A stretch of DNA of 64,000 nucleotides from positions 1 to 64,000 of the forward strand of contig JBMORE010000022.1 in assembly GCA_049322255.1 (NCBI GenBank), in the 5' to 3' direction. Positions 1,038 through 39,795 of the stretch are shown here, piece after piece. The translations under genes and the position numbers were made by a program. Under the pieces are notes generated by a model. That model was given only the letters and a program-made list of their open reading frames with translations. It was not told the DNA's origin and did not search any database. Numbering within the stretch: position 1 is the first letter of the stretch; each line of letters opens with the position of its first letter. This stretch comes from Myxococcota bacterium (lineage in GTDB: Bacteria; Myxococcota; Myxococcia; Myxococcales; Myxococcaceae).

Positions 1038-2225
1038 ATGAAAAATGCAATGTTGTTGGTGTTTTTGATGACTGGGCTTGCGTCGGCCCAGGAGACTCCG
1101 ACGACTTCCGCGCCGGCTGAAGCGAAGCCGGCGGAGTCGATGAAACCCGTCGAGGAACTTTCGCTCGACTACCTCTTGAACGTCGCCGTCGCGCAGGGAG
1201 AAGCGGGGTCGTTCGGGACGCGGCTCGAGAAGCTCGATACCAGCGTGTTCCTCCACGCGTACCTCACGCTCGACTACTACAACCAGAACTCGCAGCACTC
1301 CTTCGACGCCCACTATTTCAACGTCTTCGTGGGTGGAAACGTGGCCGACCGTCTCTTCCCCGAAGTACAGGTCGAGCTGGAGCACGGCAACGAGTTCGCC
1401 GTCCGCTTCGCGCAGCTCGACGTGAAGCTGCACGAAGCCTTCATCGTTCGCAGCGGGCTCTTTCTGGTTCCGTTCGGGCTCTACAACGAGTTCCTCTACC
1501 CCGAGTACCTCACCAAGCTTCCCCGGAGCCCGCTGGTGCTGTTTTACCGGGACATCATTCCTGTCGCCTGGAACGACACCGGCGTGCAGGTGCGCGGCAA
1601 GACCAACCTCTCGTCGGCCCTTGGCTTGAGCTACGCCGCTTACCTGGTCAACGGCCTGGAGCAGAAAGACGCGGCGCCCAAGGACGGTGTCATCGTGGAG
1701 GGTGGGGGCATTCGCGGCATGCGTGGAAACTTCCGCGACCTCAACAACGCCAACAAGGCTTTCGGCGGGCGCCTCAGCCTCGACTTGTGGGATGAGACGC
1801 TCCTCTTCGGCGTGTCCGGCTACAGGGGGATGTACACCGCCGAGGGAAGGCGCTTTCTCACGCTCCTTGGCTCGGAGGTGTTGTTCAAGAAGAACAAGTT
1901 CTACTTCCGGGTCGAAGGCGCGGTGGCGCTGCAAGACGTCAGCGACGCGGCGGAGCCCGACGGCCTCCGCCAGCTCACCAAGCAGGGCGTGTACGCGCTC
2001 GCCGCATACTCGGTGATTCCTCAAATCGAGCCTGCGGTGGCCTTCGACCGCATCGTCCTGGGGGGCAGGGTTTCGGACAACGTCAGTCGATTCACCCTGG
2101 GGGTGAACTACCGCCCCTTTGGCCAATCGAATTTCGTCACCCGCGCCTCCTACACCTTCAGCCGTCCCGATGGCTCTACGACGCGTGACGACATCTTCAT
2201 GATTCAAGCGTCTATGGGCATTTAG
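1038..2225 (+). CDS. Outer-membrane porin-like beta-barrel protein
   Basis: ATG at 1038 after GGAGGGGG; signal peptide MKNAMLLVFLMTGLASA; alternating beta-strand pattern; porin-like motifs EVQVELEHG, GLFLVPFGLYNE, DLNNANKAFGGR. Confidence 0.75.
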   Translation: MKNAMLLVFLMTGLASAQETPTTSAPAEAKPAESMKPVEELSLDYLLNVAVAQGEAGSFGTRLEKLDTSVFLHAYLTLDYYNQNSQHSFDAHYFNVFVGGNVADRLFPEVQVELEHGNEFAVRFAQLDVKLHEAFIVRSGLFLVPFGLYNEFLYPEYLTKLPRSPLVLFYRDIIPVAWNDTGVQVRGKTNLSSALGLSYAAYLVNGLEQKDAAPKDGVIVEGGGIRGMRGNFRDLNNANKAFGGRLSLDLWDETLLFGVSGYRGMYTAEGRRFLTLLGSEVLFKKNKFYFRVEGAVALQDVSDAAEPDGLRQLTKQGVYALAAYSVIPQIEPAVAFDRIVLGGRVSDNVSRFTLGVNYRPFGQSNFVTRASYTFSRPDGSTTRDDIFMIQASMGI

Positions 2226-2339
2226 CCGCCGTGCCGGCTATTGGGGCCCGGCTTGGACTTCAGCCTTTGAATTTCCTCCTTCCCCAGGCATCCTTGGGGG
2301 CAACGGTCCTTTTGGGTCCATCTGAGTGCGAGGCGAATC

Positions 2340-2918
2340 ATGAAGCGGGTGCTGCGCACCTTGTGTGCGATGTCGGTTGGAATGACTCTTCTGGGCGCTC
2401 CTTCGGGCGCGCGGGCGGAGTCTGCTGGTGCCGTGAGGGCGGCGTTGGTCTTGCGCATTTTGGCCTTTGACCGCAACCTGGCCGCTCGGACACAGCCCTC
2501 CGTTACCGTGGCGGTCATCTTCAAGGCGGGTGTCGCCGAGTCGGAAGCGGCCCAGAAAGAAATGGTCGCAGATCTGTCCATGCTGACGAAAAAGGTGACG
2601 GTCGCCGGCAAGCCAGTTCGGATTGTCAGCCTCCCCTACACCCAGGGCCAGCTCGATGCCGCTCTCGCCAAGGTAGATGCGTCGGCGATCTACGTCTGCC
2701 CGGGGCTGGAGGACGAGGTGGCGGCCATCTCCAAGACGACCCGTGGCCGTAGCACGCTGTCATTGACGTCGGTGGAGCAGGCAGTCAAGCAAGGCCTCGC
2801 CGTCGGGGTCGTTCGCCGCGACAACAAGTCCGGCATCCTCGTCAACCTCCCCGCGTCGCGCGCTGAGGGAGCAGATCTCGACTCGGGGTTGCTCCGAGTC
2901 GCCGAGGTTCTTCGCTGA
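2340..2918 (+). CDS. YfiR/HmsC (DUF4154)-like periplasmic protein
   Basis: Signal peptide; family-like segments [12 protein letters not shown] and [26 protein letters not shown]. Confidence 0.8.
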
Positions 2919-2940
2919 AATCCAAAAAGAGGCTCGACAC

Positions 2941-4479
2941 GTGAGCATATTCAATCGCGCGGACGACCAGTCTGGTGCATCCGTTCGCCTCCGTACCTTT
3001 TTGTTGGTAGCGGTTCCCCTGGTCCTCCCCATCATTTTCAACGTCTGGTACGTCCCGGGCGAGCATGGCGATGCGCTTACCGGCACGGTGAGGGAGAAGG
3101 CGAAGGTGCTCACGCGCCTGTACGCCGACAACGCCGCAGCCCCGATCAGCTTCGATGACAGCAAGGGGTTGGATCTGCTTCTCAAGACGGCGCAGGCTGA
3201 CTCCGACATCAAGTACATGGTCGTCACCTCCGCCGACGGGAAGGAGCTCGGCGTTTATGGCGACCGAAGCAAGGCAACCAAGCGGTGGAAGCCGAGCGAG
3301 CTGGAGGCCGACACGGTCCAGATTTGGGAGGCCGAGGGACAACAGCTGCTGCACGCCGCTTTCCCCGTGGTGCCCAGCAGAGAGCTCATCGGCGCCAAGG
3401 GAGAGCAGGAGCTCTTGGGGGTCGTCCAGGCTGGCTTCGACACTGCGCCGATGACCGAGCAGGCATCGAAGTTTCGTAACACCGCCATCGGCATCTTCGT
3501 CGTCGTTTTGCTGATTGCGGCCGCCATGGCTTTCCTCCTGGGGCGCAGCTTCGCCGAGCTGTTCGAGAGGCTGAGGCAGTCCATGCTCCAGACGGCATCG
3601 CGGGTGGACGACGTCGTCAACCAGCTCGCGGCGGTGACCGCTGAGCAGACCTCGGCGGCCTCTGAAGAGTCGGCCGCGCTCAACGAGTCGAGCGCGACCG
3701 CCAGCGACCTCGCCCACGCCGCGACGGCTGCGGCACAGCGGGCAGGTGGGCTCATCGAGGGAGGGTCTCGGGCCGAAAAGAGCGCGGCCGATGGGTTGAA
3801 GGCGGTGGACACCGCCATCGGGGCGCTGCGCAACGTTCGTGAGCAGATGAATACCTTGGGGTCCACGGTGGGGGCGCTCTCCGAGCGTGCCGCGGCCATC
3901 GGCGAAATTGCCAGCACCGTGGCGCTGCTTGCCGAACGTTCCAACCTCTTGGCGCTCAACGCCGCCATCGAAGCGGCCCGCGCGGGAACGCAGGGTCGCG
4001 GGTTTTCCGTCGTCGCTCAGGAGATGCGCAGCTTGGCCGACGGGTCCAACCGGTCGGCGGGTCAAGTGAAGGCGATCATCGGTGAGATTCAGGCTTCCAT
4101 CGCCCGGGCGGTGAACGACTCGCGGGAAGGCGAGCGACGCGTCGGGCACGCCGAACAACTCGCCGAGCAGGCAGGCGACAGCATCAAGCGGTTCGCGGAG
4201 GTGACGCGAGAGTTCGCCCTGGTCGGCAAGGAGATCGCCGCCTCCTCCAACCAGCAAAGCGTGGCCATCGAGCAGATGGTGGAGTCCATCTCCCATGCCG
4301 CGCAGGCAGGAAACAGCCAGCTCACCACCACCAAGCAGGTGGAAGAAACGTCACGCCAGCTCCGCGAGCTTTCCCGCGCGATGCTCAAGACGGTGATTGG
4401 GGAGCACACCGACAATCGCCTACAGGGCTCCGCGGGGTTGGGGGAGCGGCCGGTGCCCCCGGACGCCCGGCCCCGGTAG
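2941..4479 (+). CDS. Methyl-accepting chemotaxis protein with CHASE8-like periplasmic sensor (WspA-like position)
   Basis: Two TM helices; MCP tip [37 protein letters not shown]. Confidence 0.95.
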
Positions 4480-4513
4480 ACTCAAGACTCCGTCGATTCG
4501 CGCAGGAGTGGAG

Positions 4514-4987
4514 ATGGAGCCGTCGCAGGACCTGGTGGTGGTTCAAATCAGCGGCAAGGCGTTTGGGTTGGCGACCTCGGTGGTCAGCGAGGTGCTCCCC
4601 ATGGTCGAGCCGACGCCGATGCCCGGCTGGTCCGCGAACGCTCTGGGGTTCATCAACGTGCGTGGAGAAATCATTCCCTTGGTGGACATCGCCCCGGTCA
4701 TCGGTCTTCCGAGCTCGCCCGTCTCGCGAAGCCAGTTCATCGTTCTTCTTTCCGCCTTGCGCCGAAAGTGGGGGGTCATCGTCGACCAAGTGGAAGGGGT
4801 GCGGAACGCGCAGGTGCTTCAAAACAAGGGACTGGCACCTTTGGAAGTGGTCGACGCCTCGGACCTGTGCTTGGGGCTGGCCGTCGAGCCGACTGGCCCA
4901 GTGGTCGTGTTGGACCCGGAAGGGATCATTCGCCGCATCAAGCTACCTTGGGGTGAGGCGGAGTCGTCTCGGAGTGTGAGCGAGTGA
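4514..4987 (+). CDS. cheW: CheW-like adaptor
   Basis: VSEVLPMVEPTPMPG..LGFINVRGEIIPLVDI, GVIVDQVEGV; start moved to ATG after AGGAG. Confidence 0.9.
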   Translation: MEPSQDLVVVQISGKAFGLATSVVSEVLPMVEPTPMPGWSANALGFINVRGEIIPLVDIAPVIGLPSSPVSRSQFIVLLSALRRKWGVIVDQVEGVRNAQVLQNKGLAPLEVVDASDLCLGLAVEPTGPVVVLDPEGIIRRIKLPWGEAESSRSVSE

Positions 4988-6369
4988 ACCGAGTCGAGCC
5001 CAGTGTGAATCGGATCAACTCCGAGAGCGTGCTGGACCTTTTGGTTCGCATGGTTGAACGTCGGTTCGGGCTTCGCGTTCAGGACAGCCTGAAGGGGGCG
5101 ATCGCGAGCGCTGCGCAGCGGCTGGTGATCGAGGGCACGGTCCAAAATCTCTCTGAGGTGCTTCACCGCTTGGTGACCGGCCCGGCAGAAGATGTCGCCG
5201 TGGTGGAGCTCAAGCAGGCGGTCACCATCAGCGAAACCTACTTCTTCCGCACCCCGGAGCAGCTGGCGTCTCTTCGCAGTCAAGTCGAGCAGCTCATCGT
5301 CCTTCCCAAACGCTCGCGCGGCACCAAGTACCTGCGCGCCTGGTCTGCCGGATGTGCCACCGGGGAGGAGGCCTACACGCTGGCGGTCATTCTCCGCGAG
5401 CTCGCTCCCGACTTCTCCGTGCAGGTCATCGGCTCAGACATGAACGCCGGTTCGCTTCGCGTGGCCAAGGCTGGTGTCTACTACCAGCGCTCCCTGCGCG
5501 GGCTGAACCCCGAGCAGCAAAGTTGGCTTCGACGGCATGGAGAGGGTTGGGAAGTCGTTCCGGCGATTCGCCAACTCGTCACTTTCGTCGAGCACAACCT
5601 CATCACCGACCCGGCTCCGTCGCCGGAAAGAGGGCTGCTCTCCTTCGATGTGGTGTTTTGCCGCAACGTTCTCATCTACATCGACGAGTCGAAGATACCG
5701 AATCTGATGAAGCGGTTGACGGCGACGGCTGCTCCGGTCAGCGTCTTGGGCCTGTCGCCGGCGGAATACATGGCTGCTCCCTACGCCGTCGGGTTCTCCA
5801 GCGTCGCGCATGGTCTCTTCGTTCGACGTGGGCCCCCGGCTCAGGCTGCTCCCTTGGCACCCGTGGCGCCGGCGCCTCTCCCTGCCACCCTTCTGGAGCC
5901 TCGCCGCCCGTCGGCTTTCGACGCGCCACGCCCGCAGGCGCAGCCCACACCTTCGGCGTCTGCGAGCCCGGAGCAAATGCTCCAGCGGGCCCGTGAGGCG
6001 GCCGATCGAGGAAACCTCGTCGAGGCCAGAGAGCTCGCCGAGATGGTGTTGGCGCACCAGGCAGACCGCGCGTACGCGTGGTACTTGCTGGCGTTGGTTC
6101 ACTCAGCGTCGGGACAGCTCGCCCAGGCCATCGATGCGTTCACCCGGGCCCTGTTCCTCGATCGTGACATGGTGGGTGCGGAACTGGGCCTAGCGCAAGT
6201 GCTTGCCCGCGAGCGTGGTCCTCGGCATGCGCGCAAACACTTCGAGCGCGCGTTGCGGTTGCTTTCCGAGCGGCCTTCGGAGGCGACGGTCGAGGAGCTG
6301 GGTGTGACGGTGGCGACGGCCAAAGCCGTGGCGGCGGGGGCGCTGGAAGACGAGGGGGTAGGCCGGTGA
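4984..6369 (+). CDS. cheR: CheR methyltransferase with C-terminal TPR (WspC-like)
   Basis: [26 protein letters not shown]; Pro/Ala linker followed by TPR-like helices. Confidence 0.93.
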   Translation: MNRVEPSVNRINSESVLDLLVRMVERRFGLRVQDSLKGAIASAAQRLVIEGTVQNLSEVLHRLVTGPAEDVAVVELKQAVTISETYFFRTPEQLASLRSQVEQLIVLPKRSRGTKYLRAWSAGCATGEEAYTLAVILRELAPDFSVQVIGSDMNAGSLRVAKAGVYYQRSLRGLNPEQQSWLRRHGEGWEVVPAIRQLVTFVEHNLITDPAPSPERGLLSFDVVFCRNVLIYIDESKIPNLMKRLTATAAPVSVLGLSPAEYMAAPYAVGFSSVAHGLFVRRGPPAQAAPLAPVAPAPLPATLLEPRRPSAFDAPRPQAQPTPSASASPEQMLQRAREAADRGNLVEARELAEMVLAHQADRAYAWYLLALVHSASGQLAQAIDAFTRALFLDRDMVGAELGLAQVLARERGPRHARKHFERALRLLSERPSEATVEELGVTVATAKAVAAGALEDEGVGR

Positions 6370-6905
6370 CCCAGCCTCATGGCCCCGATCGCTTTTTGGG
6401 CTTGCCGGCCGAGGAGCGCGAGGTCTTGCGCGCGCGGGCCAAGGAGGTGGCGCGCACCCCCGAGGCGGTTTCTGACGGGGAGCTCTTGAGCGTCCTCGAG
6501 CTGCACAGCCGTGGCCAGACCCTCGCGCTGCCGCTGTCTTTCGTCGAGGGCGTCACCGAGTTGGTGTCCCTGGCCGCCGTGCCCCGCGCTCCGCCGCTGG
6601 TGAGAGGGCTGGTGGCCTTTCGCGGAGAGGTGTTGATTGGGCTGGAGCTGTCTGCCCTGATTGGCGGAATCGATGCGGGCTTCGCCGACCTCAGGAAGGT
6701 GATTGCAGTGGCGGCGGGGGCAACGAAGATCGGCATCTTGGCGGAGAAAGTAATCTCCGTGCGACAGGTGGCGGCTGCCGGCTTCAAGCCCGACCCGGTC
6801 AGCACCCTTCCCTTCGTGGTGGGGACGGACGAGAACCTCCTCTCGCTGTTGGATCCGGCAGAGCTCGTCGGTTACGTGGTTCGCTCTCTAGCGGGAGAAG
6901 CTTAG
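6366..6905 (+). CDS. cheW: CheW-like adaptor (WspD-like position)
   Basis: VPRAPPLVRGLVAFRGEVL; N-terminal LRARAKEVAR. Confidence 0.85.
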   Translation: MTQPHGPDRFLGLPAEEREVLRARAKEVARTPEAVSDGELLSVLELHSRGQTLALPLSFVEGVTELVSLAAVPRAPPLVRGLVAFRGEVLIGLELSALIGGIDAGFADLRKVIAVAAGATKIGILAEKVISVRQVAAAGFKPDPVSTLPFVVGTDENLLSLLDPAELVGYVVRSLAGEA

Positions 6906-9389
6906 GTGAGCGACAACGAGCTGTTGGCGGTGTTCGTCCAAGAGGCCACCGAGGTGCTCGCGTTGCTCGGGCGCCGTCTCATCGAGCTGGAGACGAGCCC
7001 GCAAGAGGGAAATCAAGCAGAACGGGTCCGAGAGATATTTCGCCTGGCGCACACGCTCAAAGGCTCTGCCGCCACCGTGGGTCGCAGCGACTTTGCCGAG
7101 CTGGTGCACCACCTCGAATCTTGCCTCGACGCCGTACGCAAAGGAGCCCTTCGCCCCGACAAGCGGCTCATCGACGCGTCCTTGAACGCGGTCGATTTCC
7201 TCCAGGGTGGGCTCCAACGGCAACTGACCAAGGAGGAGATCGCCAAGGCCGCCGCACCGTTGGAAGCGGTGAGACAGCCCGACCGGCCGGCATCGCCGGC
7301 GCGAAAGCGCAAGGCGGAGCCCAAAGTCACCAAGGGCCTCGTCGACCAGGCGCTGCAGTTGTTGGCAGCGGCCGGACGGGGTCAAGCACCCAACGCTACG
7401 GTCGAGCTCAAGGCGGCCCTGGAAAAGCTCGAACGCACGCAAGAGGCCAGCGCCTCGGCCCGCTTCACCAGGCTGCTACGCGAGGTGGCGCGCGCGCTGG
7501 CCCAACAAGGCGACGCGCTGGAGTCTGGCTTCGTCGCGCGGGCGCTGCAGACGGTGGACTACTTCCGGCTCGAGCTCGAAGGGGCCGGCTCTGACGAGGA
7601 AGCCGAAGCGCTGATTTCTCTTTTCGCCGCGCCGGCGCCTCGTTCGGAAAAGCTCAAAGAGCCGCCGCAGAGCTCGCCGGCCGCCGAGCCCTCCGGGTCG
7701 GCGCCTCCCACCGCGGAGACGTCGGTGCGCATTCCGGTGGCGCTGCTCGACGCGATGCTGTTTCGCCTCGACGAGCTGGTCGCGGCTCGGCTGCGGGTGG
7801 ACCACAACTGCCGCCAGGTCGAAGAGGCGCAGGCGGCGGTGGACTTCATCCTGGCCAAGGCGCGCGGGCTGGGAAACGAGTTGCCGGAGTGGCTCGAGGG
7901 GCTCAAGCGGAGGCTGGAGGTCGTTCGCGCGGGGATGGCGAACGAGGGTCACTCCCTCGGCATTCTCACCCAGGCCCTGCAGGACGATGTGAAGGAAGTG
8001 CGGATGGTGCCGGTGGGCCCGCACCTCGACCCCATGCGGCGAATGGTGCGCGACCTCGCCCACACCTTGGGAAAGGAGGCGTCGCTCGAGATCACCGGTG
8101 AGGAGGTACGAGTCGACAAGCGGCTGCTCGAGTTGATGAGAGACCCGCTGATGCACCTTCTGCGCAACGCAGTAGACCACGGGCTCGAGCCCCCCGAAGA
8201 GCGCCGCGACGCGGGAAAGCCGCCTCGGGGCCAAGTTCGCATCGCCGCCGAGGCGCGTGAGTCACAGGTGTGGATCGAGATTCGCGACGACGGGCGGGGC
8301 ATCGACCCCCAACAGGTGCGCTCGAGCGCGGTGAAAAAGGGCCTGGTAGACGCGGACCGCGCACGGCAGCTGACCGACAGGGAAGCGCTCAACCTCATCT
8401 TCCTTCCCGGGTTCAGCACCGCCGACCAGGTGTCTGAAACCTCGGGGAGGGGAGTGGGGTTGGACGTGGTGCGCGAGAACGTGGCGCGGCTGGGAGGGCG
8501 AATCGAGTTCTACAGCGAGCTGGGAAAGAGCACCCAGTTCATCGTTTGCTTGCCCCTGACGCTCGCTGCCTCCCGGGGCCTGCTCGTGGTCGCCGGCCGG
8601 CAGGCGTACTGTCTGCCTTTGACCGCGGTGGAAGAGGTGGTGGCGATAGAGCCGGGAGAGCTCGGCGTCGCCCAGGGGCACTTCGCCTTTCAGCGCCGTC
8701 GCCAGGCGATTCCCTTTCTTCCGCTTGCCGAGCTGCTCGCCGGCCAGCCGGCATCACGGCCGACGAGCCGGGTCTTCGCGGTTGTTCTCGCCCTCTCCGA
8801 TCGCCGGCTCGCGGTGGGAGTGGACGAGCTCATGGGTCAGGAAGAGGTGGTGGTCAAAGGGCTGGCCCCAGGCACTCCCCGCCTGCCGTTCGTCTCCGGG
8901 GCCACCGCGCTCGCCGACGGGAGGCTGGTGACGGTGCTCGAGCCCAGCGCTCTGGTGGCGACGGGGTCAAAAGTACACCAGGTGGCTTCTTCCGCCCGAA
9001 ACGAGGCGGTGACCGTGTTGGTCGCCGACGACGCTTTGACCTCGCGGACGATGGTGTCCTCCATCCTCGAGCGGGCCGGCTACCGGACGATTCTCGCTCC
9101 CGATGGTGAGGCCGCGTGGAGGCTCTTGGCCAAGGAAAAGGTCGATCTCGTGGTGAGCGACGTGGAGATGCCGGGGCTGGATGGGCTGGGCCTGACCCGG
9201 CGAATCCGCGCCAGCGCGAGCGGTTCGGACCTGCCCGTCATTCTCATCACCTCGCTCGACGGGCCGGAGGACCGCGCGCGGGGTGCAGCGGCAGGCGCCA
9301 ACGGCTACCTGGTGAAGAAAGATTTTCAGCCGGGCGCCTTGCTGGGAATGGTGCGTGACTTTCTCGGGTCGCAGGGAGGGCGAAAGTGA
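6906..9389 (+). CDS. cheA: Hybrid CheA kinase with C-terminal receiver (WspE-like)
   Basis: Hpt AHTLKGSA, HLLRNAVDHG, DDGRG, GFST..SGRGVGLDVV, CheW domain, receiver VSDVEMP. Confidence 0.96.
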   Translation: MSDNELLAVFVQEATEVLALLGRRLIELETSPQEGNQAERVREIFRLAHTLKGSAATVGRSDFAELVHHLESCLDAVRKGALRPDKRLIDASLNAVDFLQGGLQRQLTKEEIAKAAAPLEAVRQPDRPASPARKRKAEPKVTKGLVDQALQLLAAAGRGQAPNATVELKAALEKLERTQEASASARFTRLLREVARALAQQGDALESGFVARALQTVDYFRLELEGAGSDEEAEALISLFAAPAPRSEKLKEPPQSSPAAEPSGSAPPTAETSVRIPVALLDAMLFRLDELVAARLRVDHNCRQVEEAQAAVDFILAKARGLGNELPEWLEGLKRRLEVVRAGMANEGHSLGILTQALQDDVKEVRMVPVGPHLDPMRRMVRDLAHTLGKEASLEITGEEVRVDKRLLELMRDPLMHLLRNAVDHGLEPPEERRDAGKPPRGQVRIAAEARESQVWIEIRDDGRGIDPQQVRSSAVKKGLVDADRARQLTDREALNLIFLPGFSTADQVSETSGRGVGLDVVRENVARLGGRIEFYSELGKSTQFIVCLPLTLAASRGLLVVAGRQAYCLPLTAVEEVVAIEPGELGVAQGHFAFQRRRQAIPFLPLAELLAGQPASRPTSRVFAVVLALSDRRLAVGVDELMGQEEVVVKGLAPGTPRLPFVSGATALADGRLVTVLEPSALVATGSKVHQVASSARNEAVTVLVADDALTSRTMVSSILERAGYRTILAPDGEAAWRLLAKEKVDLVVSDVEMPGLDGLGLTRRIRASASGSDLPVILITSLDGPEDRARGAAAGANGYLVKKDFQPGALLGMVRDFLGSQGGRK

Positions 9390-10393
9390 TTCGCCTGCTC
9401 ATCGCCGAGGACAGCGCCACCGTGCGCAAGCACCTGACGTCTCTTTTTTCCAGGGAGCCGGACTTCGAGGTGGTGGGAACCGTCGGCTCGGCCGACGAGG
9501 TGGCCAGCGCGGTCGAACGGTATCAGCCTGACGCGCTGAGCCTGGATGTCTACATGCCCGGGAGGGCTGCGGTGGAGGTGGTGCGCGAGGTTCTCTCCAC
9601 GCGCCCGCTGCCCATCATCTTGGTCAGCGACGCGCCGCGCCATGACGCCGAGGTGTTCGAGGCGTTGTCAGCGGGGGCGCTCGATTTCGTCGGCAAGCCA
9701 TTGGCCTCCGACGACGAGGCTTGCCGAGAGCTCGTTCACCTGTTTCGGGCGCTCAGCCGGGTGAGGGTGCGGGTGCGTCGGCGCAAGGCAGCCCAGCCCG
9801 CGCCACCAAGGCCAAGCGAGATTCGGCTCGTGACGATCGTGTCCTCCACGGGAGGGCCGACCGCTTTGCGGGAGCTGCTTGCCAGCCTGGGGAGCGGCTT
9901 TTCGGTACCGGTGGTGGTGGCGCAGCATCTGGCCGTGGGCTTCGAAGAGGGTTTGGCGCGCTGGCTGGCGCAGGCCACCTCGCTGCGCATTCGGGTGGCC
10001 CAGAGCGGCGACTCGCTCGAGCCCGGAGAAGTGCTCTTGGGTCAGGCGGGCAACGACTTGGTCATCGAACCCACAGGCCGCGTGCGCATCGCGCGGCCGG
10101 AGGAGCGCGGCTACCACCCCTCGGGTGACGTGCTCTTCAGCTCCGCAGCGAGCGCCTACGGGAGTGGGGTGCTCGGAGCCGTCCTGAGCGGCATCGGCTC
10201 CGACGGCGCGAAAGGGGCGGCGAGCATCGCCGCGGCAGGAGGTATTTTGATGGCGCAGGACGACCAATCGAGCGCCGTTTACGGCATGCCGAAGGCGGTG
10301 GCGCATCTGGCCCTCTTCATCGGCTCCCCTGCGAAGATGGCGGCGTCCATCGTGGAAGCCGTCTCCAGCCGGGGTGCCCCGCGCGCCCGTTAG
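9386..10393 (+). CDS. cheB: CheB methylesterase with receiver
   Basis: Receiver (LDVYMP) plus SSTGGP, AQHL, GIGSDGA catalytic motifs. Confidence 0.93.
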   Translation: MIRLLIAEDSATVRKHLTSLFSREPDFEVVGTVGSADEVASAVERYQPDALSLDVYMPGRAAVEVVREVLSTRPLPIILVSDAPRHDAEVFEALSAGALDFVGKPLASDDEACRELVHLFRALSRVRVRVRRRKAAQPAPPRPSEIRLVTIVSSTGGPTALRELLASLGSGFSVPVVVAQHLAVGFEEGLARWLAQATSLRIRVAQSGDSLEPGEVLLGQAGNDLVIEPTGRVRIARPEERGYHPSGDVLFSSAASAYGSGVLGAVLSGIGSDGAKGAASIAAAGGILMAQDDQSSAVYGMPKAVAHLALFIGSPAKMAASIVEAVSSRGAPRAR

Positions 10394-11592
10394 GTTTCCA
10401 AAGCCCGGGAGGGTTCGAGCGTGCGACGGGCGAGCGGAACCTCGAGGGTGAAGGTGGCGCCCTGCCCAGGAGGCGAGATGGCCTCGATCTTTCCCCCCAG
10501 GCTCTGGAGAATTCCGTAGGAGACGCTCAGGCCGAGTCCCGTTCCGGTGCCGGGACGCTTGGTGGTGAAGAAGGGGTCGAAGATCCGGCTGAGAATCTCC
10601 GGGGGAATACCGGGCCCCGAGTCGGTGATGGCAATGAGGGCGTTGTTCCCCACCGGTCGTGCCGTCACCGTGATGGCTCCTGACGAGTTGCCGATGGCTT
10701 GAACGGCGTTGATGAAGATGTTGACCAGCACCTGGCCGAACCGGTGACGAACCGTGCTCAGCCAGAGCGTTCCCTCCAGCTGCGCTTGAAATTCGACATG
10801 GTGGGCCTTCAAACGGGCGAGCTTCCAGGCGCGATCGATCTCTTCGGCCAGGTTCACCTCTTCGAGGTTTTCTTTGCGTTCCGACGCGAAGTCTCCCAGA
10901 TCCCTGACGATACGCTCGATTCGCTGAACGCCATCCGAGACCTCAGCGCCGATTTGACGCATCTCCGCGATGGTGTGATGCGGCGGCGCCGGCCCCATCG
11001 AAGCCTCGAGCTCATCGACCAGCCCCAGAATCGCGCCAACCCCTGCCTTCATGTATGCCAGCGGGTTGTTGATCTCGTGCGCCACGCCCGACGCCAGCGT
11101 TCCAATCGTGGCGAGCTTCTCGGTTCGGGTGAGCGCGGTCTGGGCTTCCTGCAGCTCCCGGTTCGATCGTTCCAGCTGACGCGTACGCTCTTCGAGGCTC
11201 ACCGTTGCATGACGGAGGCGAAGGAGCGAGTGGACCCGCGCCAACAGCTCTCTGGAGCGAATGGGCTTGCAAAGGAAATCATCGGCGCCCAGCTCGAGGC
11301 CCTTCATCCGCTCCTCCTCGCCCACCTGAGACGTGAGCAAGACGAGCGGAATGGTCGCCAGCTCGGGGCGCTCCCTCAGCTTCTGGCACAGCTCGTAGCC
11401 GTTCATTCCATCCATGACGATGTCGGTGATGATCAGATCTGGATGAAACGTGTCGACCACCGACAGCGCTTCTTCGGCGCTGGTCACACAGAGGCAAGAA
11501 TGCAGTGGCTGCAGCAGGGTTTCGATGAAATGCCGAATGGTCGCTGAGTCGTCGCAGGCGAGGATTCGCCCTGCAAGAGTCTTGGTGGCCAT
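10390..11592 (-). CDS. Receiver-histidine kinase hybrid (cytoplasmic)
   Basis: Receiver (CDDS, TDIVM, KP), H-box [34 protein letters not shown] overlaps upstream TGA. Confidence 0.95.
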
Positions 11593-12338
11593 CAAGCCGC
11601 CCCCGCGTGGTGCTCCCCTACCAACCGTAGCACGCCCATCAGCGGGAGCATGGTGATCGGCTTTCTGAAGAACATGGTGTCTTTCTGAAAAAGGTCGCCG
11701 TGCGGCGGGCTTCCCGAGCCGAGCAGGATGACCGGTGTGCGGGCGTGGCGAGAGTCGCTGCGCACCACGTTGAGAAGCTGGCGCACGTGCTCTACCGTCT
11801 CATGGTCGAGATCGACGATGGCGAGGTCGATTCGGCGGTCGCGAATCGTTTTTCGTACCTCAGGCAGGTCGTCTGCACCTATGAGGTCGACTTGCCAGCC
11901 GGTGCTCTTCGAGAGCCTGGCGAAATGGCCAAGGAAGACCGCGCGCATGATGGGTTGGCGCTCGAGCAGAAGAAGGCGCATCGTCCACCGGGGCTGAGGA
12001 CGCGCCGGCGTCGAGGGGCCGGGCTTGAGCTTGACGAGAACGTCTTTCAGGCGGGCTTCGTTCTTCGGGGTGACGCGTTGAAAGGCGAGGCCGACCCCGG
12101 GGTAGGGCGCTTGGAGCTCCGTCGCGCTCCACCGTACCTCTGCGTCCACTTCGAGAGGCTCTGGATCTCCGGGAATCTCGAGCATCAGGCGAAGGTGGGT
12201 ACCTACGGGAGGAGGTGACTCGGTGCGCAAGAAAACCCCGCCGGCGCTCAGGTTCATGACGAGCGAGCTTTCCAGCGGCCCCAAAGCCGCCACGCCCGCT
12301 TTGAGCAACACGTCCATTCTTTCGCTGCGTGGGAGCAT
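11592..12338 (-). CDS. PilZ-domain + atypical receiver protein, copy 1
   Basis: NLSAGGVFL, AEVRW, GVGLAF; receiver-like IDLAIVDLD..FFRKPI; start aligned to copy 2. Confidence 0.88.
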   Translation of the reverse strand: MLPRSERMDVLLKAGVAALGPLESSLVMNLSAGGVFLRTESPPPVGTHLRLMLEIPGDPEPLEVDAEVRWSATELQAPYPGVGLAFQRVTPKNEARLKDVLVKLKPGPSTPARPQPRWTMRLLLLERQPIMRAVFLGHFARLSKSTGWQVDLIGADDLPEVRKTIRDRRIDLAIVDLDHETVEHVRQLLNVVRSDSRHARTPVILLGSGSPPHGDLFQKDTMFFRKPITMLPLMGVLRLVGEHHAGAA

Positions 12339-12469
12339 TGCGGCCGATTCACTGGGCATTCACGGCGCATGCCGAAGAAGGGCTCCCCCAAATGTGAAGC
12401 AAGAATCGTGGGATGGGCAGAAACGGCGTGGGCGAAACGTCGCCGATGGGTCGTTCACGACCTGGCGGT

Positions 12470-12850
12470 TCACCCTGCCGCGGCGGCGCGGGCCAACACC
12501 TGGCGGAGCTTGACTTTGAGGTAGTCCACTTGAACAGGTTTGAGCACAAACCCAGCGCAGCCTAGAGAGCGGCATTCATTGACTTGGTCCACCGCCGTCA
12601 CCGTGGTGACCACCAGAACGGGAATCTTCTTGGTCCGCTCATCGCCTTTGATGGATCGCAGAAGGTCGAGCCCGTCCATCACCGGCATTTCCAGGTCCAC
12701 CACCATCGCATCGGGTGATTGGTCGAACGCCAGCTGGAGCCCTTCTTGACCATTGGAGGCGGCGAGACACTCGAAGTCGCTGCTGAGCTCGCCGACCAGC
12801 TGGGTGCGAATGGTCGTCGAATCGTCCACGATGAGAATCCGCTTTTTCAT
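12470..12850 (-). CDS. Single-domain response regulator (CheY-like)
   Basis: ILIVDDS, VVDLEMPVMDG, LKP. Confidence 0.93.
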   Translation of the reverse strand: MKKRILIVDDSTTIRTQLVGELSSDFECLAASNGQEGLQLAFDQSPDAMVVDLEMPVMDGLDLLRSIKGDERTKKIPVLVVTTVTAVDQVNECRSLGCAGFVLKPVQVDYLKVKLRQVLARAAAAG

Positions 12851-12859
12851 GCGTGCCGC

Positions 12860-13234
12860 CTAGCTTACCTGGGCCAAATGCTTTTGCACCTCAGTGATGA
12901 GCAGATCGGCCAGGTTGGAGCCCTTACTGAATGCGCCTGTTGCCCCACAAGCCTTGGCGCGCTCCTGAAGCTTGGCCGGGCTCATCGTCGAGGCCAGGAG
13001 AATGGGGGGATGCGGCTTGATCGCCTCCGCCAGGTACTCGACCAAGTCGTGCCCCATCAGCTCGGGCATGACTTCGTCGACGATCACCAGGTCGATGCTC
13101 TTGCCTTGCAGGTGGGCGGAGAGCTCGGAAAGGTCCTTGGCCCCGAGGAATATGTACCCGGCCTTCTCTAGACACGCGCGCGCGACATTCAGCACCGTTT
13201 CGCTGTCATCGATGAAGAGGATGGTCTTCGCCAT
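12860..13234 (-). CDS. Single-domain response regulator
   Basis: ILFIDDS, IVDEVMPELMG, FSK. Confidence 0.9.
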   Translation of the reverse strand: MAKTILFIDDSETVLNVARACLEKAGYIFLGAKDLSELSAHLQGKSIDLVIVDEVMPELMGHDLVEYLAEAIKPHPPILLASTMSPAKLQERAKACGATGAFSKGSNLADLLITEVQKHLAQVS

Positions 13235-13980
13235 CAGCTGCCCCCCGCATGGTGCTCCCCCACCAGGCGGAGCACGCCCATCAGCGGGAGCATGGTGATG
13301 GGCTTTCTGAAGAACATGGTGTCTTTCTGAAAAACGTCGCCGCGCGGCGGGTCTCCCGAGCCGAGCAGGATGACCGGGGTGCGGGCGTGGCGAGAGTCGC
13401 TGCGCACCACGTTGAGAAGCTGGCGCACGTGCTCTGCCGTCTCATGGTCGAGATCGACGATGGCGAGGTCGATTCGGCGGTCGCGAATCGTTTTTCGTAC
13501 CTCGGACAGGTCGTCTGCGCCCATGAGGTCGACTTGCCAGCCGGTGCTCTTCGAGAGCCTGGTGAAATGGTTGAGGAAGACCGCGCGCATGATGGGTTGG
13601 CGCTCGAGCAGAAGTAGGCGCATCGTCCACCGGGGCTGAGGACGCGCCGGCGTCGAGGGGCCGGGCTCGAGCTTGACGAGAATGTCTTTTAGGCGCGCTT
13701 CGTTCTTCGGGGTGACGCGTTGAAAGGCGAGGCCGACCCCGGAGTAGGGCGCTTGGAGCTCCGTCGCGCTCCACCGTACCTCGGCGTCCACCTCGAGAGG
13801 CTCCGGATCGCCGGGAATCTCGAGCATCAGGCGAAGCAGGGTACCCACGGGAGGAGGTGACTCCGTGCGCAAGAAAACCCCGCCGGCGCTCAGGTTCATG
13901 ACGAGCGAGCTCTTCAGCGGCCCCAAAGCTGCCTCGCAGGCTTTGAGCAAGACTTCCGTTCTTTCACTGGTTCGGAGCAT
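13234..13980 (-). CDS. PilZ-domain + atypical receiver protein, copy 2
   Basis: RTSER (RxxxR) and NLSAGG (NxSxxG) PilZ motifs; receiver-like C-terminus. Confidence 0.88.
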   Translation of the reverse strand: MLRTSERTEVLLKACEAALGPLKSSLVMNLSAGGVFLRTESPPPVGTLLRLMLEIPGDPEPLEVDAEVRWSATELQAPYSGVGLAFQRVTPKNEARLKDILVKLEPGPSTPARPQPRWTMRLLLLERQPIMRAVFLNHFTRLSKSTGWQVDLMGADDLSEVRKTIRDRRIDLAIVDLDHETAEHVRQLLNVVRSDSRHARTPVILLGSGDPPRGDVFQKDTMFFRKPITMLPLMGVLRLVGEHHAGGS

Positions 13981-16352: not shown

Positions 16353-17999
16353 ATGACCTTTTATGAAGCCGCGCTCCGCGTGCTGCAGAGCGCCGGCCAC
16401 CCTCTCCATGTGGGGGAGATCACCGAGCGGTCGATCAAAGAAAACCTCCTCTCCCACGTGGGGAAGACCCCCGAGCAGACGATGCTTTCCCGGTTGGCGG
16501 CGATGGCCAAGCGCCCGCGCGATCGACGGGTCATCGTCACCGCCAAAGACACCTTCGCTCTCTCCGACTGGCAGCTGCCTGAAGACCCGGCGGCGCTGGC
16601 CCAGACCGGGGTTCTCGAGCCGCACCCGGAGGAGGAGCTGCCCCCCTTGCGCCCGGTGGAACGCCACCCGGAGCCCCGCGGGGACAACGTGCGCTCGGCC
16701 GGCCGCGGGGAGAAGCGGCGCCGGGACGAGGAGGAGCGTGGCCGGCGCCGGCGCTTCCCGCCCATCTCCGAGGTGGTGTTCGAGGTCTTGAGCGAAGCGG
16801 GCGAGGGTTTGCGGCCCGAGGAGATCGCCGAGCGGGCCCGCCGCCGCGAACTGGCCAGCGACGAGCTTTCCAACGAGCAGATTCTCACCGCGCTGCTCGA
16901 GGACAACCAGCGGCGCATCGATGTGGGGCGGCGGCCGCAGTTTTTGCTCGACAAAGAAAACGGCCGAATCTCCCTGGAACGCGCGGGGCAGCCCTCGGAG
17001 GCGCCTCCGCTGGAGCTGCAGGCGGCGTTCGCTGCCGCGCTGGGCATTCCGCTCGAGGGTGGGCGGCCGGTGCTGCCGCGGCGCGAGGAGCGGCTCGCCG
17101 ACGGCGGCTACCCGGAGAAGCTCTCGGCGGCCAAGGCCGCGGTCAAGGAGGCGCGCCGCGCGATGGCGTCGGCCCTGCGCCGGCGATTGGCCGACCTCGA
17201 CGGGGGCACCTTCGAAAAGTCGGTGGTGCGGGTGATGCAGGCGCTCTCTTTCAGGGAAATCAAGGTCGCCAAGCGCACCAAGGACGGCCCCCTGCTCACC
17301 GCCCGCCGCAAGGAGGGCAGTGTGGAGCTGCGCTACGCGGTGCGCACCCACAAAGGCGCAGGCGCCGTCGACCGCCGCATGGTGCAGGAGCTGCGGCGCG
17401 ACCTGGGCCACTACTCGGCCCAGCTGGGTCTTTTGTGCTGCCCCGGCGACGTACGGGGCGACGCCAAGAGCGAGGCGGTGGGCGGCGGGTCGCTGGTGTT
17501 CTTGTGGTGCGGCGACGCGCTGGGCGAGAAGTTCCTCGAGGCGGGCTGCGGGGTGAGTCGCCAAGAGGTGGCACTGTTCGAGATGGACGAGCGCTTCTTC
17601 GAGCAGGCGCGCATCGATGCCGAGGAGGCACGCGCTCGCCGCGAAGAACGCCATCGCGAGCGGGAGCAAGGCCGCCTCGAGACCGCCGGGGGAGCGCCGA
17701 TGTCCCCCGAGGGTGCACCGACGGCGCCCGCACCGGTCGAGGAGGAGGGGGCTGGTGGAGAAGAGGGCGAGGAGGGTGACGAGGATCTGGAGGCCGCCAG
17801 CGCGTTCGTGAACGAGCGTGCTCCACACACCGGTGAAGGGGCTTTGCAGCCGGGTGGGCGTCGCCGCCGTCGACGTCGCCGGGGCCGCCGCGGGCGTCGT
17901 CCGCTCGAGGGGGGCGTGCCTGGGCAGGCGGAACCGGTGGCGGCTCCGATGGAAGGTGGCGCCGCGCCACCCGCGTCACCCCCGGAGCCGACGGAGTGA
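16353..17999 (+). CDS. HARE-HTH (HB1/ASXL) domain protein with degenerate Mrr-like nuclease fold
   Basis: MTFYEAALRVL..PLHVGEI..GKTPEQTM; second wHTH-like segment; FEKSVVRVMQALSF Mrr-like start; acidic and poly-Arg tail. Confidence 0.75.
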   Translation: MTFYEAALRVLQSAGHPLHVGEITERSIKENLLSHVGKTPEQTMLSRLAAMAKRPRDRRVIVTAKDTFALSDWQLPEDPAALAQTGVLEPHPEEELPPLRPVERHPEPRGDNVRSAGRGEKRRRDEEERGRRRRFPPISEVVFEVLSEAGEGLRPEEIAERARRRELASDELSNEQILTALLEDNQRRIDVGRRPQFLLDKENGRISLERAGQPSEAPPLELQAAFAAALGIPLEGGRPVLPRREERLADGGYPEKLSAAKAAVKEARRAMASALRRRLADLDGGTFEKSVVRVMQALSFREIKVAKRTKDGPLLTARRKEGSVELRYAVRTHKGAGAVDRRMVQELRRDLGHYSAQLGLLCCPGDVRGDAKSEAVGGGSLVFLWCGDALGEKFLEAGCGVSRQEVALFEMDERFFEQARIDAEEARARREERHREREQGRLETAGGAPMSPEGAPTAPAPVEEEGAGGEEGEEGDEDLEAASAFVNERAPHTGEGALQPGGRRRRRRRRGRRGRRPLEGGVPGQAEPVAAPMEGGAAPPASPPEPTE

Positions 18000-34591: not shown

Positions 34592-35362
34592 TTACGCGTC
34601 GTCGTCCGAGGTTCGGACAGTCTCGGTGATTTTGGAGAGCACCGAGTCCTTGGTGACGTAGCCGTCGGCGCCCGCCTCGCGGCAGATGCGTTTGAGCTCG
34701 GCCTCGTCTTCGCCCGAGCACAACAGCACCTTGATGCCGCGAAAGAGGGTGTTGCCCTTGATGAAGCGGCAGAACTGCTCCCCGTTGACGTTGGGCATGC
34801 GGACGTCCAATAGGACGAGGTCGGGGCGGGTCTGCTTCTTGAGGATGATTTTGGTCGCCTTGTCGGCGGTGTCGGCAGTGAAGACCTCCAAGCCCTTGGC
34901 GCTCAGCTCCGATTGGAGAAGCAGCGCCACCGTCTCGCTGTCGTCGACGATGAGCACCCGTTTCTTGCGCGTGGTGGGTGTCTGGGCGCTCTCGCCGGCC
35001 GGGGCGGTGAGCTTGCCGACGTTGGCGACCGCCGACTCCAGCCCCTTCGACTTGCAGATGTAGCCGTCGGCGCCGACGGCCTTGGCCTTGGCCGCCAGCT
35101 CGGTCTCGGCGATGTCCGAATAGAGCACCAGCTTGGAGGAGAGCTTTCGTTGGGTGCGCAAAAACTCCACCACGTCGTCGCCGTACATCTCGGGCATGTT
35201 GACGTCGACCAGCACCAAGTCGAACTTCGTCTTGGCCAGCGCGGCGTCGAGGCTGGCGAGGTCCGCCGCTCCCTCGGTGGTGTAGCCGGCAGAGCGCAAG
35301 GCACGAACCACCAGGTCCAGGGTCATCTGGCTGTCGTCGATGACGAGCACGTGAGCGGACAT
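34592..35362 (-). CDS. frzZ: FrzZ dual-receiver response regulator
   Basis: Two receiver domains (VDVNMP, LDVRMP); divergent from the frz operon. Confidence 0.9.
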   Translation of the reverse strand: MSAHVLVIDDSQMTLDLVVRALRSAGYTTEGAADLASLDAALAKTKFDLVLVDVNMPEMYGDDVVEFLRTQRKLSSKLVLYSDIAETELAAKAKAVGADGYICKSKGLESAVANVGKLTAPAGESAQTPTTRKKRVLIVDDSETVALLLQSELSAKGLEVFTADTADKATKIILKKQTRPDLVLLDVRMPNVNGEQFCRFIKGNTLFRGIKVLLCSGEDEAELKRICREAGADGYVTKDSVLSKITETVRTSDDDA

Positions 35363-35415
35363 TCAAGGGCTCTTTTTAGCGGGCCGCTGGGCCAAATCCA
35401 ATCCCGGTGCACTTC

Positions 35416-35444
35416 TTGACCCGTCTTCCGCAGGTTTCGATACT
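35416..35444 (+). promoter_or_regulatory. Sigma70-like promoter of the frz operon
   Basis: TTGACC-N17-GATACT. Confidence 0.4.
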
Positions 35445-35454
35445 GTAGCGCCCT

Positions 35455-35970
35455 TTGGAGCCGACATCCCTACAGCGTGCGCTGGCCTCCGCTCCCCAGC
35501 GGCCGGTCGTCAACACGGAACGCCCGGAGCAGGAGCTCTTTTGCTTTCGCCTGGGCGAGATGGATTTCGGTGTGCCCTCGGGCAACGTTCGTGAAGTCAC
35601 TCGGCTCGGCCCGATGACGCCCCTGCCCCGCACCGCCTCCTTCGTGCTGGGGGTGGCCGGTCACCGGGGTGAGGTTTTACCGGTGGTCGACCTGTTGCGC
35701 TTTCTGGGCAAGGGAGAAGCCAAGGTCGGGCCGCGGACGCGGCTGCTCGTGGGCATGTCCGGCACACTCACCGCCGCGGTGGTGGCTGACGCGGTGATCG
35801 GCCTCAAGCGTATTCCGGTGGCCGACATCCTCCCTCCGCCACTGAGCGGCGACGCCGCCTCCGAGCACTTGGTGGGGGTGGTCAACCCCACCGACGGCCA
35901 AGACGCGCTCTCGGTGCTCGACTTCGCCAAGCTCCTGCAAGGCGCGCGGCAGCGGGTGGTGGCACGATGA
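35455..35970 (+). CDS. frzA: FrzA CheW adaptor
   Basis: ELFCFRLG, TPLPRT..FVLGVAGHRGEVLPVVDLL; start codon uncertain. Confidence 0.88.
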   Translation: MEPTSLQRALASAPQRPVVNTERPEQELFCFRLGEMDFGVPSGNVREVTRLGPMTPLPRTASFVLGVAGHRGEVLPVVDLLRFLGKGEAKVGPRTRLLVGMSGTLTAAVVADAVIGLKRIPVADILPPPLSGDAASEHLVGVVNPTDGQDALSVLDFAKLLQGARQRVVAR

Positions 35971-36293
35971 GCCAAGAGGCGCCGACGGTGGACCTGCTTC
36001 TTTTCGAGGTGGGGGGGACGGTGATGGGTGCAGACGCCTCCCAGGTGTTGCGCATCGACGCGGTCGCGCCTGACAAGAAACGGGCGGCCGGGGCGCGGGC
36101 ACTGGTCTTCCAAGCGGAGGACGGCGAGCGTTTCGTGGCCGTCGACGAGGTGCGCGAGGTGAAGACGGTGAACGTGACCGACCTGCGTCGAATGCCCGAG
36201 GCGACGGGCGCGCCGCCGTATGCGATCGGAGTTTGGCTCGACGGCGCTCGGCCTGTGCCGCTGGTGGATCTCGTCGAATTTTCGAAGTCCTAG
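35967..36293 (+). CDS. frzB: FrzB short CheW-like protein
   Basis: VDLLLFEVG..GADASQVLRID; lies between frzA and frzCD. Confidence 0.85.
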   Translation: MSQEAPTVDLLLFEVGGTVMGADASQVLRIDAVAPDKKRAAGARALVFQAEDGERFVAVDEVREVKTVNVTDLRRMPEATGAPPYAIGVWLDGARPVPLVDLVEFSKS

Positions 36294-36303
36294 GAGGAAA
36301 AAC

Positions 36304-37548: not shown

Positions 37549-37579
37549 GAGGTAAAAAAGGGCGAGCGCCCCTGCCTCG

Positions 37580-39769: not shown

Positions 39770-39795
39770 TGTCGTGCTCCGCCGAGGGTGGGTGA

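Follow-up and report, generated by a model that had tools for sequence, protein, structure and literature searches.

The locus described here lies in a 64,000-nucleotide stretch of Myxococcota DNA (the window, meaning the whole of that stretch), which is the start of contig C22 (JBMORE010000022.1) of a 4.85-Mb genome that is 99.6% complete. [quoted passage not shown] On balance, we believe that YfiR switches between a short tag on the barrel and the sensor domain of the MCP, thereby feeding a chemosensory pathway of the alternative cellular function (ACF) class. The locus is a real, coherent system of the YfiR-gated type and not a new category. What is new is that a porin takes the place of a TonB receptor and that a predicted docking tag is common to both scaffolds.

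How might such a switch operate? The periplasmic N terminus of the barrel would carry a short acidic-leucine helix. This tag, at the outer membrane, and the receptor's CHASE8-type PAS domain, at the inner membrane, would be alternative partners of YfiR, which would contact them through surfaces that overlap. The barrel's cue, perhaps a solute within the pore or else barrel abundance or assembly, would alter the availability of the tag, and this would move YfiR on or off the receptor, setting the activity of the CheA-REC kinase. Adaptation would proceed through CheR-TPR and CheB, and phosphate would pass to CheB and to a regulator encoded at 12470-12850, with PilZ proteins as candidate effectors. 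Binding of YfiR to the sensor, and competition for it, are steps that we infer from Pseudomonas genetics. The earlier note saw a system that reads the state of the outer membrane; this stands as one option, a solute entering the pore being an equally likely trigger.

YfiR itself is readily recognized. The gene at 2340-2918 (plus strand) encodes 192 residues that match PF13689 (YfiR/HmsC-like) at E 9.4e-13, and the score of 48.9 bits against a cut-off of 24.9 bears out the identity first given to it. It is the only yfiR copy found in the genome. The mature protein has one cysteine and therefore no YfiR-type disulfides (the pairs in YfiR are 71-110 and 145-152; PMC4655355). Within the phylum, YfiR-like proteins are present in 124 of the 401 genomes sampled with a 58-row YfiR alignment, a tally that includes one genome (G231) flagged as unpublished. 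A search of 8,000 scored candidates, 411-2,000 residues in length, yielded no longer YfiR fusion, which is weak evidence. The YfiR profile also weakly matches single-domain substrate-binding protein (SBP) structures from Rhodothermus (5Z6V, 6K1W, 8WGK, and 8WXM; E 0.006).

The barrel gene (1038-2225, plus strand) is less easily named. Its 395-residue product has a signal peptide and a Pro/Ala-rich N-terminal tail, and it probably belongs to an unnamed family of OprO/OprP (Porin_O_P)-like barrels: the ESM Atlas groups it with Porin_O_P/Porin_4-like clusters (features, 0.96-0.97; model-to-model TM, 0.75-0.80), and the alignment has the C-terminal aromatic/G-F pattern. It has no match in Pfam, NCBIfam, or the PDB; the cut-off of Porin_O_P (PF07396) is not reached, and an alignment search returned no solved relative (best E 0.12, unrelated). 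A single-sequence AlphaFold model (pLDDT 33.6) was not used. Could it be a TonB receptor? This is ruled out by its length, 395 residues against a Plug domain plus a barrel of roughly 700, and by its absence from the eight Plug matches of the genome. Among 146 new representatives of the barrel, none carries a YfiR or CHASE8 domain. Five homologues (P0103, P0104, P0113, P0121, and P0141) bear an N-terminal extension of 250-330 residues with no Pfam family, and in these the tag is weak or missing.

What, then, would link such a barrel to YfiR? The predicted YfiR-docking tag occupies barrel residues 35-54 (1140-1199, plus strand), with an acidic-leucine motif at residues 38-51 and the core residues V38, L41, L43, L46, and L47. 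Judged by sequence, the barrel and TonB receptors, which are unrelated scaffolds, have this N-terminal motif in common. A 14-column profile was trained on 20 non-redundant foreign TonB receptors, with the window barrel kept out of the training, and 7.4 bits, the 99th percentile of the window's own genome, served as the threshold. Within two genes of yfiR, 61 of 81 TonB receptors score at least 7.4 bits (leave-one-out, with near-duplicates remaining); seven of the eight TonB receptors of the window's genome score 2.1 bits or less. With this receptor-trained profile the window barrel reaches 20.5 bits and ranks second among the 4,410 proteins of its genome. As a plain pattern, the motif is found in 43 of 673 genes within two of yfiR versus 4 of 1,344 farther off (duplicates counted). 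It is present in eight of ten close homologues of the barrel and in none of three distant ones and, by falling similarity bin, in 21/46, 4/24, and 2/32 new representatives, the bins covering the 102 of 146 with a scorable N terminus. Twenty distant porin relatives have neither the motif (maximum, 4.3 bits) nor a yfiR gene within 1.5 kb. That close barrel homologues adjoin yfiR in 10 of 10 cases is mostly circular, given how the query alignment was chosen, and only the case in G221 is new.

The stretch before the plug of a TonB receptor is the usual place of the TonB box and of signalling extensions, and here the spacing between receptor motif and plug is constant (spread, 4 residues). In the receptors examined, the start of the NF053590 model coincides with the motif, and the porin motif precedes a conserved helix in the alignment. 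This constant spacing and the conserved porin helix suggest that exposure of the tag is regulated, and they tell against an explanation that we consider very improbable, namely, that YfiR gates the receptor while the tag is a fixed sink or assembly aid setting the amount of free YfiR, the cue (envelope stress) acting in the periplasm, on either YfiR or the sensor. The redox-sensing cysteines of YfiR are absent as well. The fixed-sink explanation does draw on three points: the tag of the porin is on a flexible tail and has no plug that could conceal it, 30 of 93 yfiR loci (described below) lack a barrel in cis, and YfiNR pairs without YfiB are common.

The one protein that outranks the window barrel is a TonB receptor on C181 (G000:C181:9717-11852; L234), an orphan with no yfiR nearby that may be a second input acting in trans; a single YfiR could integrate more than one barrel in this way. 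Its 61% orthologue adjoins yfiR in L172, where the motif is degenerate (-0.8 bits). Two genes from the tagged receptor, on the minus strand (C181:5343-8492), is a gene for a 1,050-residue fusion of an MCP signalling domain and SBP_bac_5. A possible third scaffold, a Phenol_MetA_deg-type barrel encoded directly 5' of a classical yfiR gene (L167:4742-5887), looks tag-like by eye, scores 2.9 bits, and was not counted. A broader proposal, which in our estimation falls slightly short of being probable, is that the tag is a portable YfiR-docking signal grafted onto unrelated barrels (TonB receptors and OprO/P-like porins) and that tag-YfiR-CHASE8 constitutes a general trans-envelope class. No sigma or anti-sigma factor would take part in it, and the outputs would be kinases, CheA-like fusions, and chemoreceptors.

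Does YfiR dock onto the tag? A complex of YfiR residues 26-192 and barrel residues 30-66, both with alignments, was modelled with a score of 0.87 (runs, 0.83-0.88); the controls scored 0.02, 0.39, and 0.00. Of 157 solved pairs, 116 attain the score mark, as do 2 of 215 mismatched ones; with our own alignments, these figures are only roughly valid. The runs have at least 81% of their contacts in common, and the partner has a pLDDT of at least 62. In the model, tag residues L46, L47, L43, and V38 lie against helix 1 of YfiR, its strand 84-90, and residues 162-166, 184, and 187. By gapless register via an intermediate homologue, S164, I166, and V187 correspond to Pseudomonas aeruginosa YfiR residues 160, 162, and 183, a patch proposed to bind YfiN (PMC3375315). 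L184 corresponds, by gapless register, to Val180, part of the pocket that receives Met59 of YfiB (PMC4655355). As modelled, the tag position overlaps the YfiR patch implicated in YfiN binding. Basic interface residues of YfiR are kept (R39 is R or K in 57/57 and K163 is kept in 55/57), and they suit an acidic tag. A learned preference for this surface of YfiR is possible because YfiB-YfiR complexes have been solved, though YfiB has an unrelated fold. Overall, the complex model supports tag-YfiR binding without demonstrating it, and together with the shared motif it makes plausible the earlier idea of the barrel as the outer membrane partner of YfiR.

The docking model is also compatible with chemoreception through a binding protein, for which the LamB-MalE-Tar logic is the model. 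Here the barrel would import a solute, tag-docked YfiR would take it and show it to the receptor, and the signal would be loaded YfiR. We regard this as unlikely, with several points in its favor: the YfiR fold resembles half of a type I binding protein (PMC4655355), the YfiR profile matches the Rhodothermus SBPs (E 0.006), the genes for which reportedly lie near MCP genes (PMC10805632), and most YfiR partners are TonB receptors, which are ligand gated. However, a tag that occupies the putative sensor-binding surface is better suited to exclusion than to hand-over, and a single type of YfiR serves unrelated barrels. The function of the Rhodothermus protein is itself stated to be not elucidated (PMC10805632).

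The receptor gene (2941-4479, plus strand) encodes a first transmembrane segment (TM1), a CHASE8-type PAS sensor, a second segment (TM2), and a 40-heptad (40H) signalling domain, with no HAMP domain, as judged from MCPsignal, the CHASE8 alignment, and AlphaFold. The translation contains the periplasmic segment quoted in the earlier note, and about 140 periplasmic residues lie between the two hydrophobic segments. CHASE8 is the sole family match in that region, and it is weak: E 0.0012 and 19.5 bits on the whole protein and 23.4 bits on the excised sensor domain, with a cut-off of 27. Similar segments from the fetched loci gave a set of 88 unique sequences including the window's own, or 68 after 70% thinning, and with the four weakest dropped the alignment held 64 segments plus that of the window. 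Scanned singly, 57 of these 65 match CHASE8 at E of 0.001 or less (best, 5.4e-14); the other matches are to sCache_3_2 (three), dCache_1 (one), and SMP_2 (one). An AlphaFold model of the sensor (pLDDT 89.4, pTM 0.82) is a single extracytoplasmic PAS-type domain. The closest solved fold is that of WalK (Z 13.1; root mean square deviation [rmsd], 2.7; 126 aligned), and CitA (Z 12.8; rmsd, 3.2; 117 aligned) and the LapD output domain (Z 11.7; rmsd, 3.3; 116 aligned) are also similar. The proposal of a CHASE8-like sensor is thus upheld by its family and its single PAS fold, the window sequence alone remaining below the cut-off. Length, profile, and fold rule out dCache and 4HB identities, a sensor of about 140 residues being too short for dCache.

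A motif, A-P-I-S-F, at sensor residues 67-71 (3139-3153, plus strand) lies, as judged by eye rather than by alignment to YfiN, at the position of the YfiN sequence AAVVF. The family consensus is A-L-x-F-D-D, and its Phe is the sole column of the alignment that is at least 90% conserved. In YfiN, the sensor of which was modelled on CitA, AAVVF is the predicted YfiR-binding site (PMC3375315). The hairpin tip of the signalling domain is at T350, and its 20-heptad arm begins at residue 210, directly after TM2, which makes the receptor 40H and leaves no room for HAMP. Among eight related CHASE8-type MCPs scanned, five match HAMP and three do not. This MCP is the sole CHASE8-type protein found in the genome.

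How does this arrangement fare in other genomes? We fetched 120 regions (117 of the 150 YfiR matches listed, plus 3 others), 21 loci from named genomes (Myxococcaceae, Archangiaceae, and Anaeromyxobacteraceae), and 64 metagenome loci. Of 206 sequences, 8 were set aside because gene calling did not pick up their yfiR; removal of identical yfiR genes left 181 loci, and 93 of these have 5 kb or more on each side. The counts describe and do not test, since related genomes lack independence. A barrel lies within four genes of yfiR in 63 of the 93 loci (54 TonB receptors and 9 porins of the window type), and a CHASE8-type sensor lies within six genes in 53 (32 CHASE8 kinases, 16 CHASE8 MCPs, 1 locus with both, 2 CHASE8-Hpt-HATPase fusions, and 2 cut genes). 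None of 509 genes more than six genes away falls in the barrel or CHASE8-sensor classes. The porin-yfiR pair precedes a CHASE8 MCP in L035, L040, L058, and L190/L192 and a CHASE8 kinase in L051, L053, L056, and L166, which indicates that input and output can both be swapped. In L033, L038, and L041, loci of the culturable genera Archangium, Cystobacter, and Hyalangium, the output is a kinase. The window arrangement is one assembly of loose parts.

Several of these loci have features of their own. L099 (1649-3775) and L080 encode a CheA-like membrane kinase (CHASE8-type sensor-HAMP-Hpt-HATPase) beside a TonB receptor and yfiR. A protein of about 460 residues, a recurring fourth component, is encoded between the TonB receptor and yfiR in L181 (8499-9896), L030, L085, L096, L102, and L162, and in L181 it matches ANF_receptor. 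In L084 (13068-17099), a CHASE8 kinase and a TonB receptor share one 1,344-residue frame, and in L050/L133, yfiR is split into two open reading frames; either may be an assembly artefact.

Orthologues of the window receptor itself are found in nine loci, with 56-62% identity at full length and 43-45% in the partial L174 and L296, and yfiR is directly 5' of the receptor gene in four of them (L032, L171, L174, and L176). Input genes are absent from L300 and L301, which contain all six genes of the che cluster, and from L304, which contains those as far as cheA. Orthologous clusters without yfiR or a barrel 5' are what one would expect if YfiR and the barrel were a pair and the receptor, a PAS sensor for small molecules, belonged to a separate che cluster that has come to adjoin them. 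The presence of the citrate sensor CitA among the nearest solved folds, the CHASE8 score below cut-off, and the degenerate motif in L304 point the same way. Even so, we judge this quite improbable: yfiR is directly 5' of the receptor in four orthologous loci plus the window, the genomes without a cis yfiR all encode a YfiR-like protein elsewhere (5/5 genomes concerned), the sole CHASE8-type protein and the sole yfiR found in the genome are those of the window, and none of the 509 distant genes is of the CHASE8 type.

Several observations weigh against the switch between tag and sensor and should be set out together. (i) Among the docking controls, an unrelated 37-mer reached 0.39 with 46 confident contacts, which suggests that the YfiR groove is sticky, and the YfiR interface columns are no better conserved than the rest (0.54 versus 0.54). 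(ii) The 7.4-bit threshold is attained by just 6 of 11 yfiR-adjoining porins, and two unrelated porins of the window's genome score 11.8 and 9.9 bits. (iii) The barrel-yfiR gap, at 114 bp, is the longest of the run at 1038-10393. (iv) No barrel lies within four genes in 30 of the 93 yfiR loci, and no CHASE8 sensor lies within six genes in 40. (v) Five of the nine orthologous receptor loci have no adjacent yfiR (L296, L300, L301, L303, and L304), and a barrel is in cis in none of the seven with a visible upstream gene; the porin alignment matches nothing in genome G392, and 2 of the 19 TonB receptors of that genome are tagged. (vi) The receptor lacks HAMP, which Malone counted in the core module. 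Co-conservation of barrel, yfiR, and mcp, by which the earlier proposal was to be judged, accordingly fails at the level of orthologues (barrel in cis in 0/7) and holds at the level of families.

Downstream of the receptor, the che genes are tightly packed. From barrel through cheB, the junctions measure 114, 22, 34, -4, -4, 0, and -4 bp, so that every junction from mcp on is 34 bp or less. No terminator-like site was seen between the barrel gene and yfiR, in promoter and terminator scans with counts at chance level. To briefly describe the products, CheW (4514-4987; PF01584, E 3.1e-22) is followed by a CheR-TPR methyltransferase (4984-6369; PF01739, E 3.3e-38, plus TPR), a second CheW (6366-6905; PF01584, E 1.1e-12), a CheA-REC hybrid kinase (6906-9389; Hpt, HATPase_c, CheW, and REC), and the REC-methylesterase CheB (9386-10393; PF01339, E 4.1e-48), all on the plus strand. 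The catalytic and phosphorylation-site motifs are present: the kinase His (His49), both receiver Asp residues (Asp752 of CheA and Asp54 of CheB), the Ser-His-Asp triad of CheB, and the S-adenosylmethionine-binding motifs of CheR. The wsp gene order, mcp-cheW-cheR(TPR)-cheW-cheA(REC)-cheB, is indeed that of the locus, as had been claimed. It is not Wsp proper, in that there is no WspR: no GGDEF gene for a WspR-type cyclase was found in or beside the run or 3' of cheB in L300 and L301. The 40H receptor, CheR-TPR, CheA-REC, and the absence of flagellar CheY/CheZ from the run are features of the ACF class, which was assigned from the features given in PMC5907407 (a 40H receptor and CheR-TPR among them) and not from a class-specific CheA model.

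Where does the signal go from here? The minus-strand REC/PilZ genes at 11592-13980, beyond the coordinates of the earlier note, are likely the best output candidates, to go by their sequences and relatives. A single-domain response regulator (12470-12850) is the probable cognate CheY-like output; its orthologues (53-56% identity) lie directly 3' of cheB in L300 and L301 and 5' of yfiR in L032. A second single-domain regulator (12860-13234) is, at 32%, the closest match in this genome to the REC gene that L032 has in its yfiR-mcp run, and a candidate output with PilZ and a degenerate receiver-like domain (13234-13980; PF07238) has a 38% orthologue in that same run, where the PilZ-REC-REC order of 13980-12470 is kept. 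Another PilZ plus degenerate receiver gene (11592-12359) is 93.4% identical to 13234-13980 over 758 bp of DNA, which indicates a recent duplication, with the copies flanking the two single-domain regulators. In the part scanned, an RxxxR-type motif is present in only one of the two PilZ copies. The PilZ-REC genes in the yfiR-che operons of L097, L131, and L143 are not orthologues of the window PilZ genes, their best match in this genome being on C31. Between cheB and these genes is a gene for a REC-histidine kinase (10390-11595, minus strand), convergent on cheB and with no clear orthologue in the fetched loci.

Other genes of the window deserve brief mention. A co-oriented gene at 42-959 encodes a 305-residue membrane-anchored protein of no family and ends 78 bp 5' of the barrel gene; no homologue was found in any fetched locus. 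A second chemosensory cluster at 34592-41358, presumably Frz-like, encodes CheW, a small CheW-like protein, a 408-residue MCP, CheA-REC, and CheR, with a divergent receiver gene and no CheB in the run. The gene at 16353-17999 encodes a protein with a HARE-HTH and an Mrr-type restriction endonuclease domain.

How does the YfiR switch compare with systems already known? With YfiBNR it has in common a PF13689 periplasmic protein, a CHASE8-type PAS sensor with an AAVVF-like motif, and a proposed switching of YfiR between an outer and an inner membrane partner on overlapping surfaces. The outer membrane partner in YfiBNR, however, is the OmpA-domain lipoprotein YfiB, the structure of which has been solved with YfiR (PMC4655355), whereas here that role would fall to a porin-like integral barrel bearing a short tag. 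The YfiN output is HAMP-GGDEF, while here it is MCP/CheA with no HAMP or GGDEF match, and the disulfide pairs of YfiR are missing from the window protein. No YfiB was found among the 18 proteins scanned at 42-20735, the rest of the genome not having been searched for it. The divergent YfiNR pairs of Malone 2012 likewise place YfiR beside a YfiN-type sensor with MCP output and lack YfiB; the cyclase of YfiN can give way to an MCP domain, and Table S4 lists a Polaromonas "YfiN" with MCP output (PMC3375315). Those pairs were described in silico only, with no barrel partner or docking motif, and neither "TonB" nor "porin" occurs in the main text of PMC3375315.

An NCBIfam trio (NF053590, NF053591, and NF053592) represents the TonB receptor TOL_0244, the YfiR-like protein TOL_0243, and a histidine kinase, and it resembles the window in combining an outer membrane barrel, a YfiR-like protein, and an inner membrane sensor. 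There the barrel is of the TonB type and the output a kinase; here they are of the porin type and chemosensory. The window genes fall outside the trio, YfiR scoring 31.5 bits against a cut-off of 125 and the barrel and sensor having no match, and the relatives are also below cut-off. OmpS of Alcanivorax dieselolei, 40.3% similar to TOL_0244, reportedly detects alkanes and triggers chemotaxis (as cited in PMC6304351). It, too, is an outer membrane receptor tied to chemotaxis, but it is a TonB receptor and not a porin, and YfiR does not occur in the available OmpS-related text of that paper. With YfiR-MCP proteins listed in PMC3375315, the NCBIfam trio catalogued, and OmpS linked to chemotaxis (PMC6304351), the claim that this locus is the best candidate for a new system in the window loses force.

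Wsp and ACF systems share the gene order, the 40H receptor, and CheR-TPR, but Wsp has the WspR cyclase and a different sensor, while the probable output here is a single-domain regulator plus PilZ proteins. In Myxococcus xanthus, Che3 with CrdB was proposed to read envelope status via a periplasmic protein (PMC3147164). CrdB is an OmpA-domain lipoprotein, and in the available text Che3 has no YfiR or barrel and has the NtrC-type CrdA as output. The Rhodothermus single-domain SBP (PDB 5Z6V and relatives), the genes for which lie near MCP genes (PMC10805632), is a weak profile match to the YfiR family and was taken in that paper to be a binding protein of the transporter type; YfiR does not occur in the accessible literature on these structures. 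Nor did the literature covered, which excludes subscription journals and bioRxiv supplements, yield any account of the tag or of a porin acting as partner.

What does the comparison add? Through the porin swap and the common tag, a catalogued gene trio becomes a testable mechanism. Most divergent YfiR systems have no YfiB, which has left their outer membrane input an open question since 2012, and the tag is a concrete candidate for it. If the switch is correct, it would account for receptor/YfiR/sensor cassettes that have been catalogued and left unstudied, give receptors like OmpS a path for signalling to chemoreceptors, and allow a plug-less porin to serve as a signal source. The predicted tag on the porin suggests how a widespread envelope-sensor family may relay signals between both membranes.

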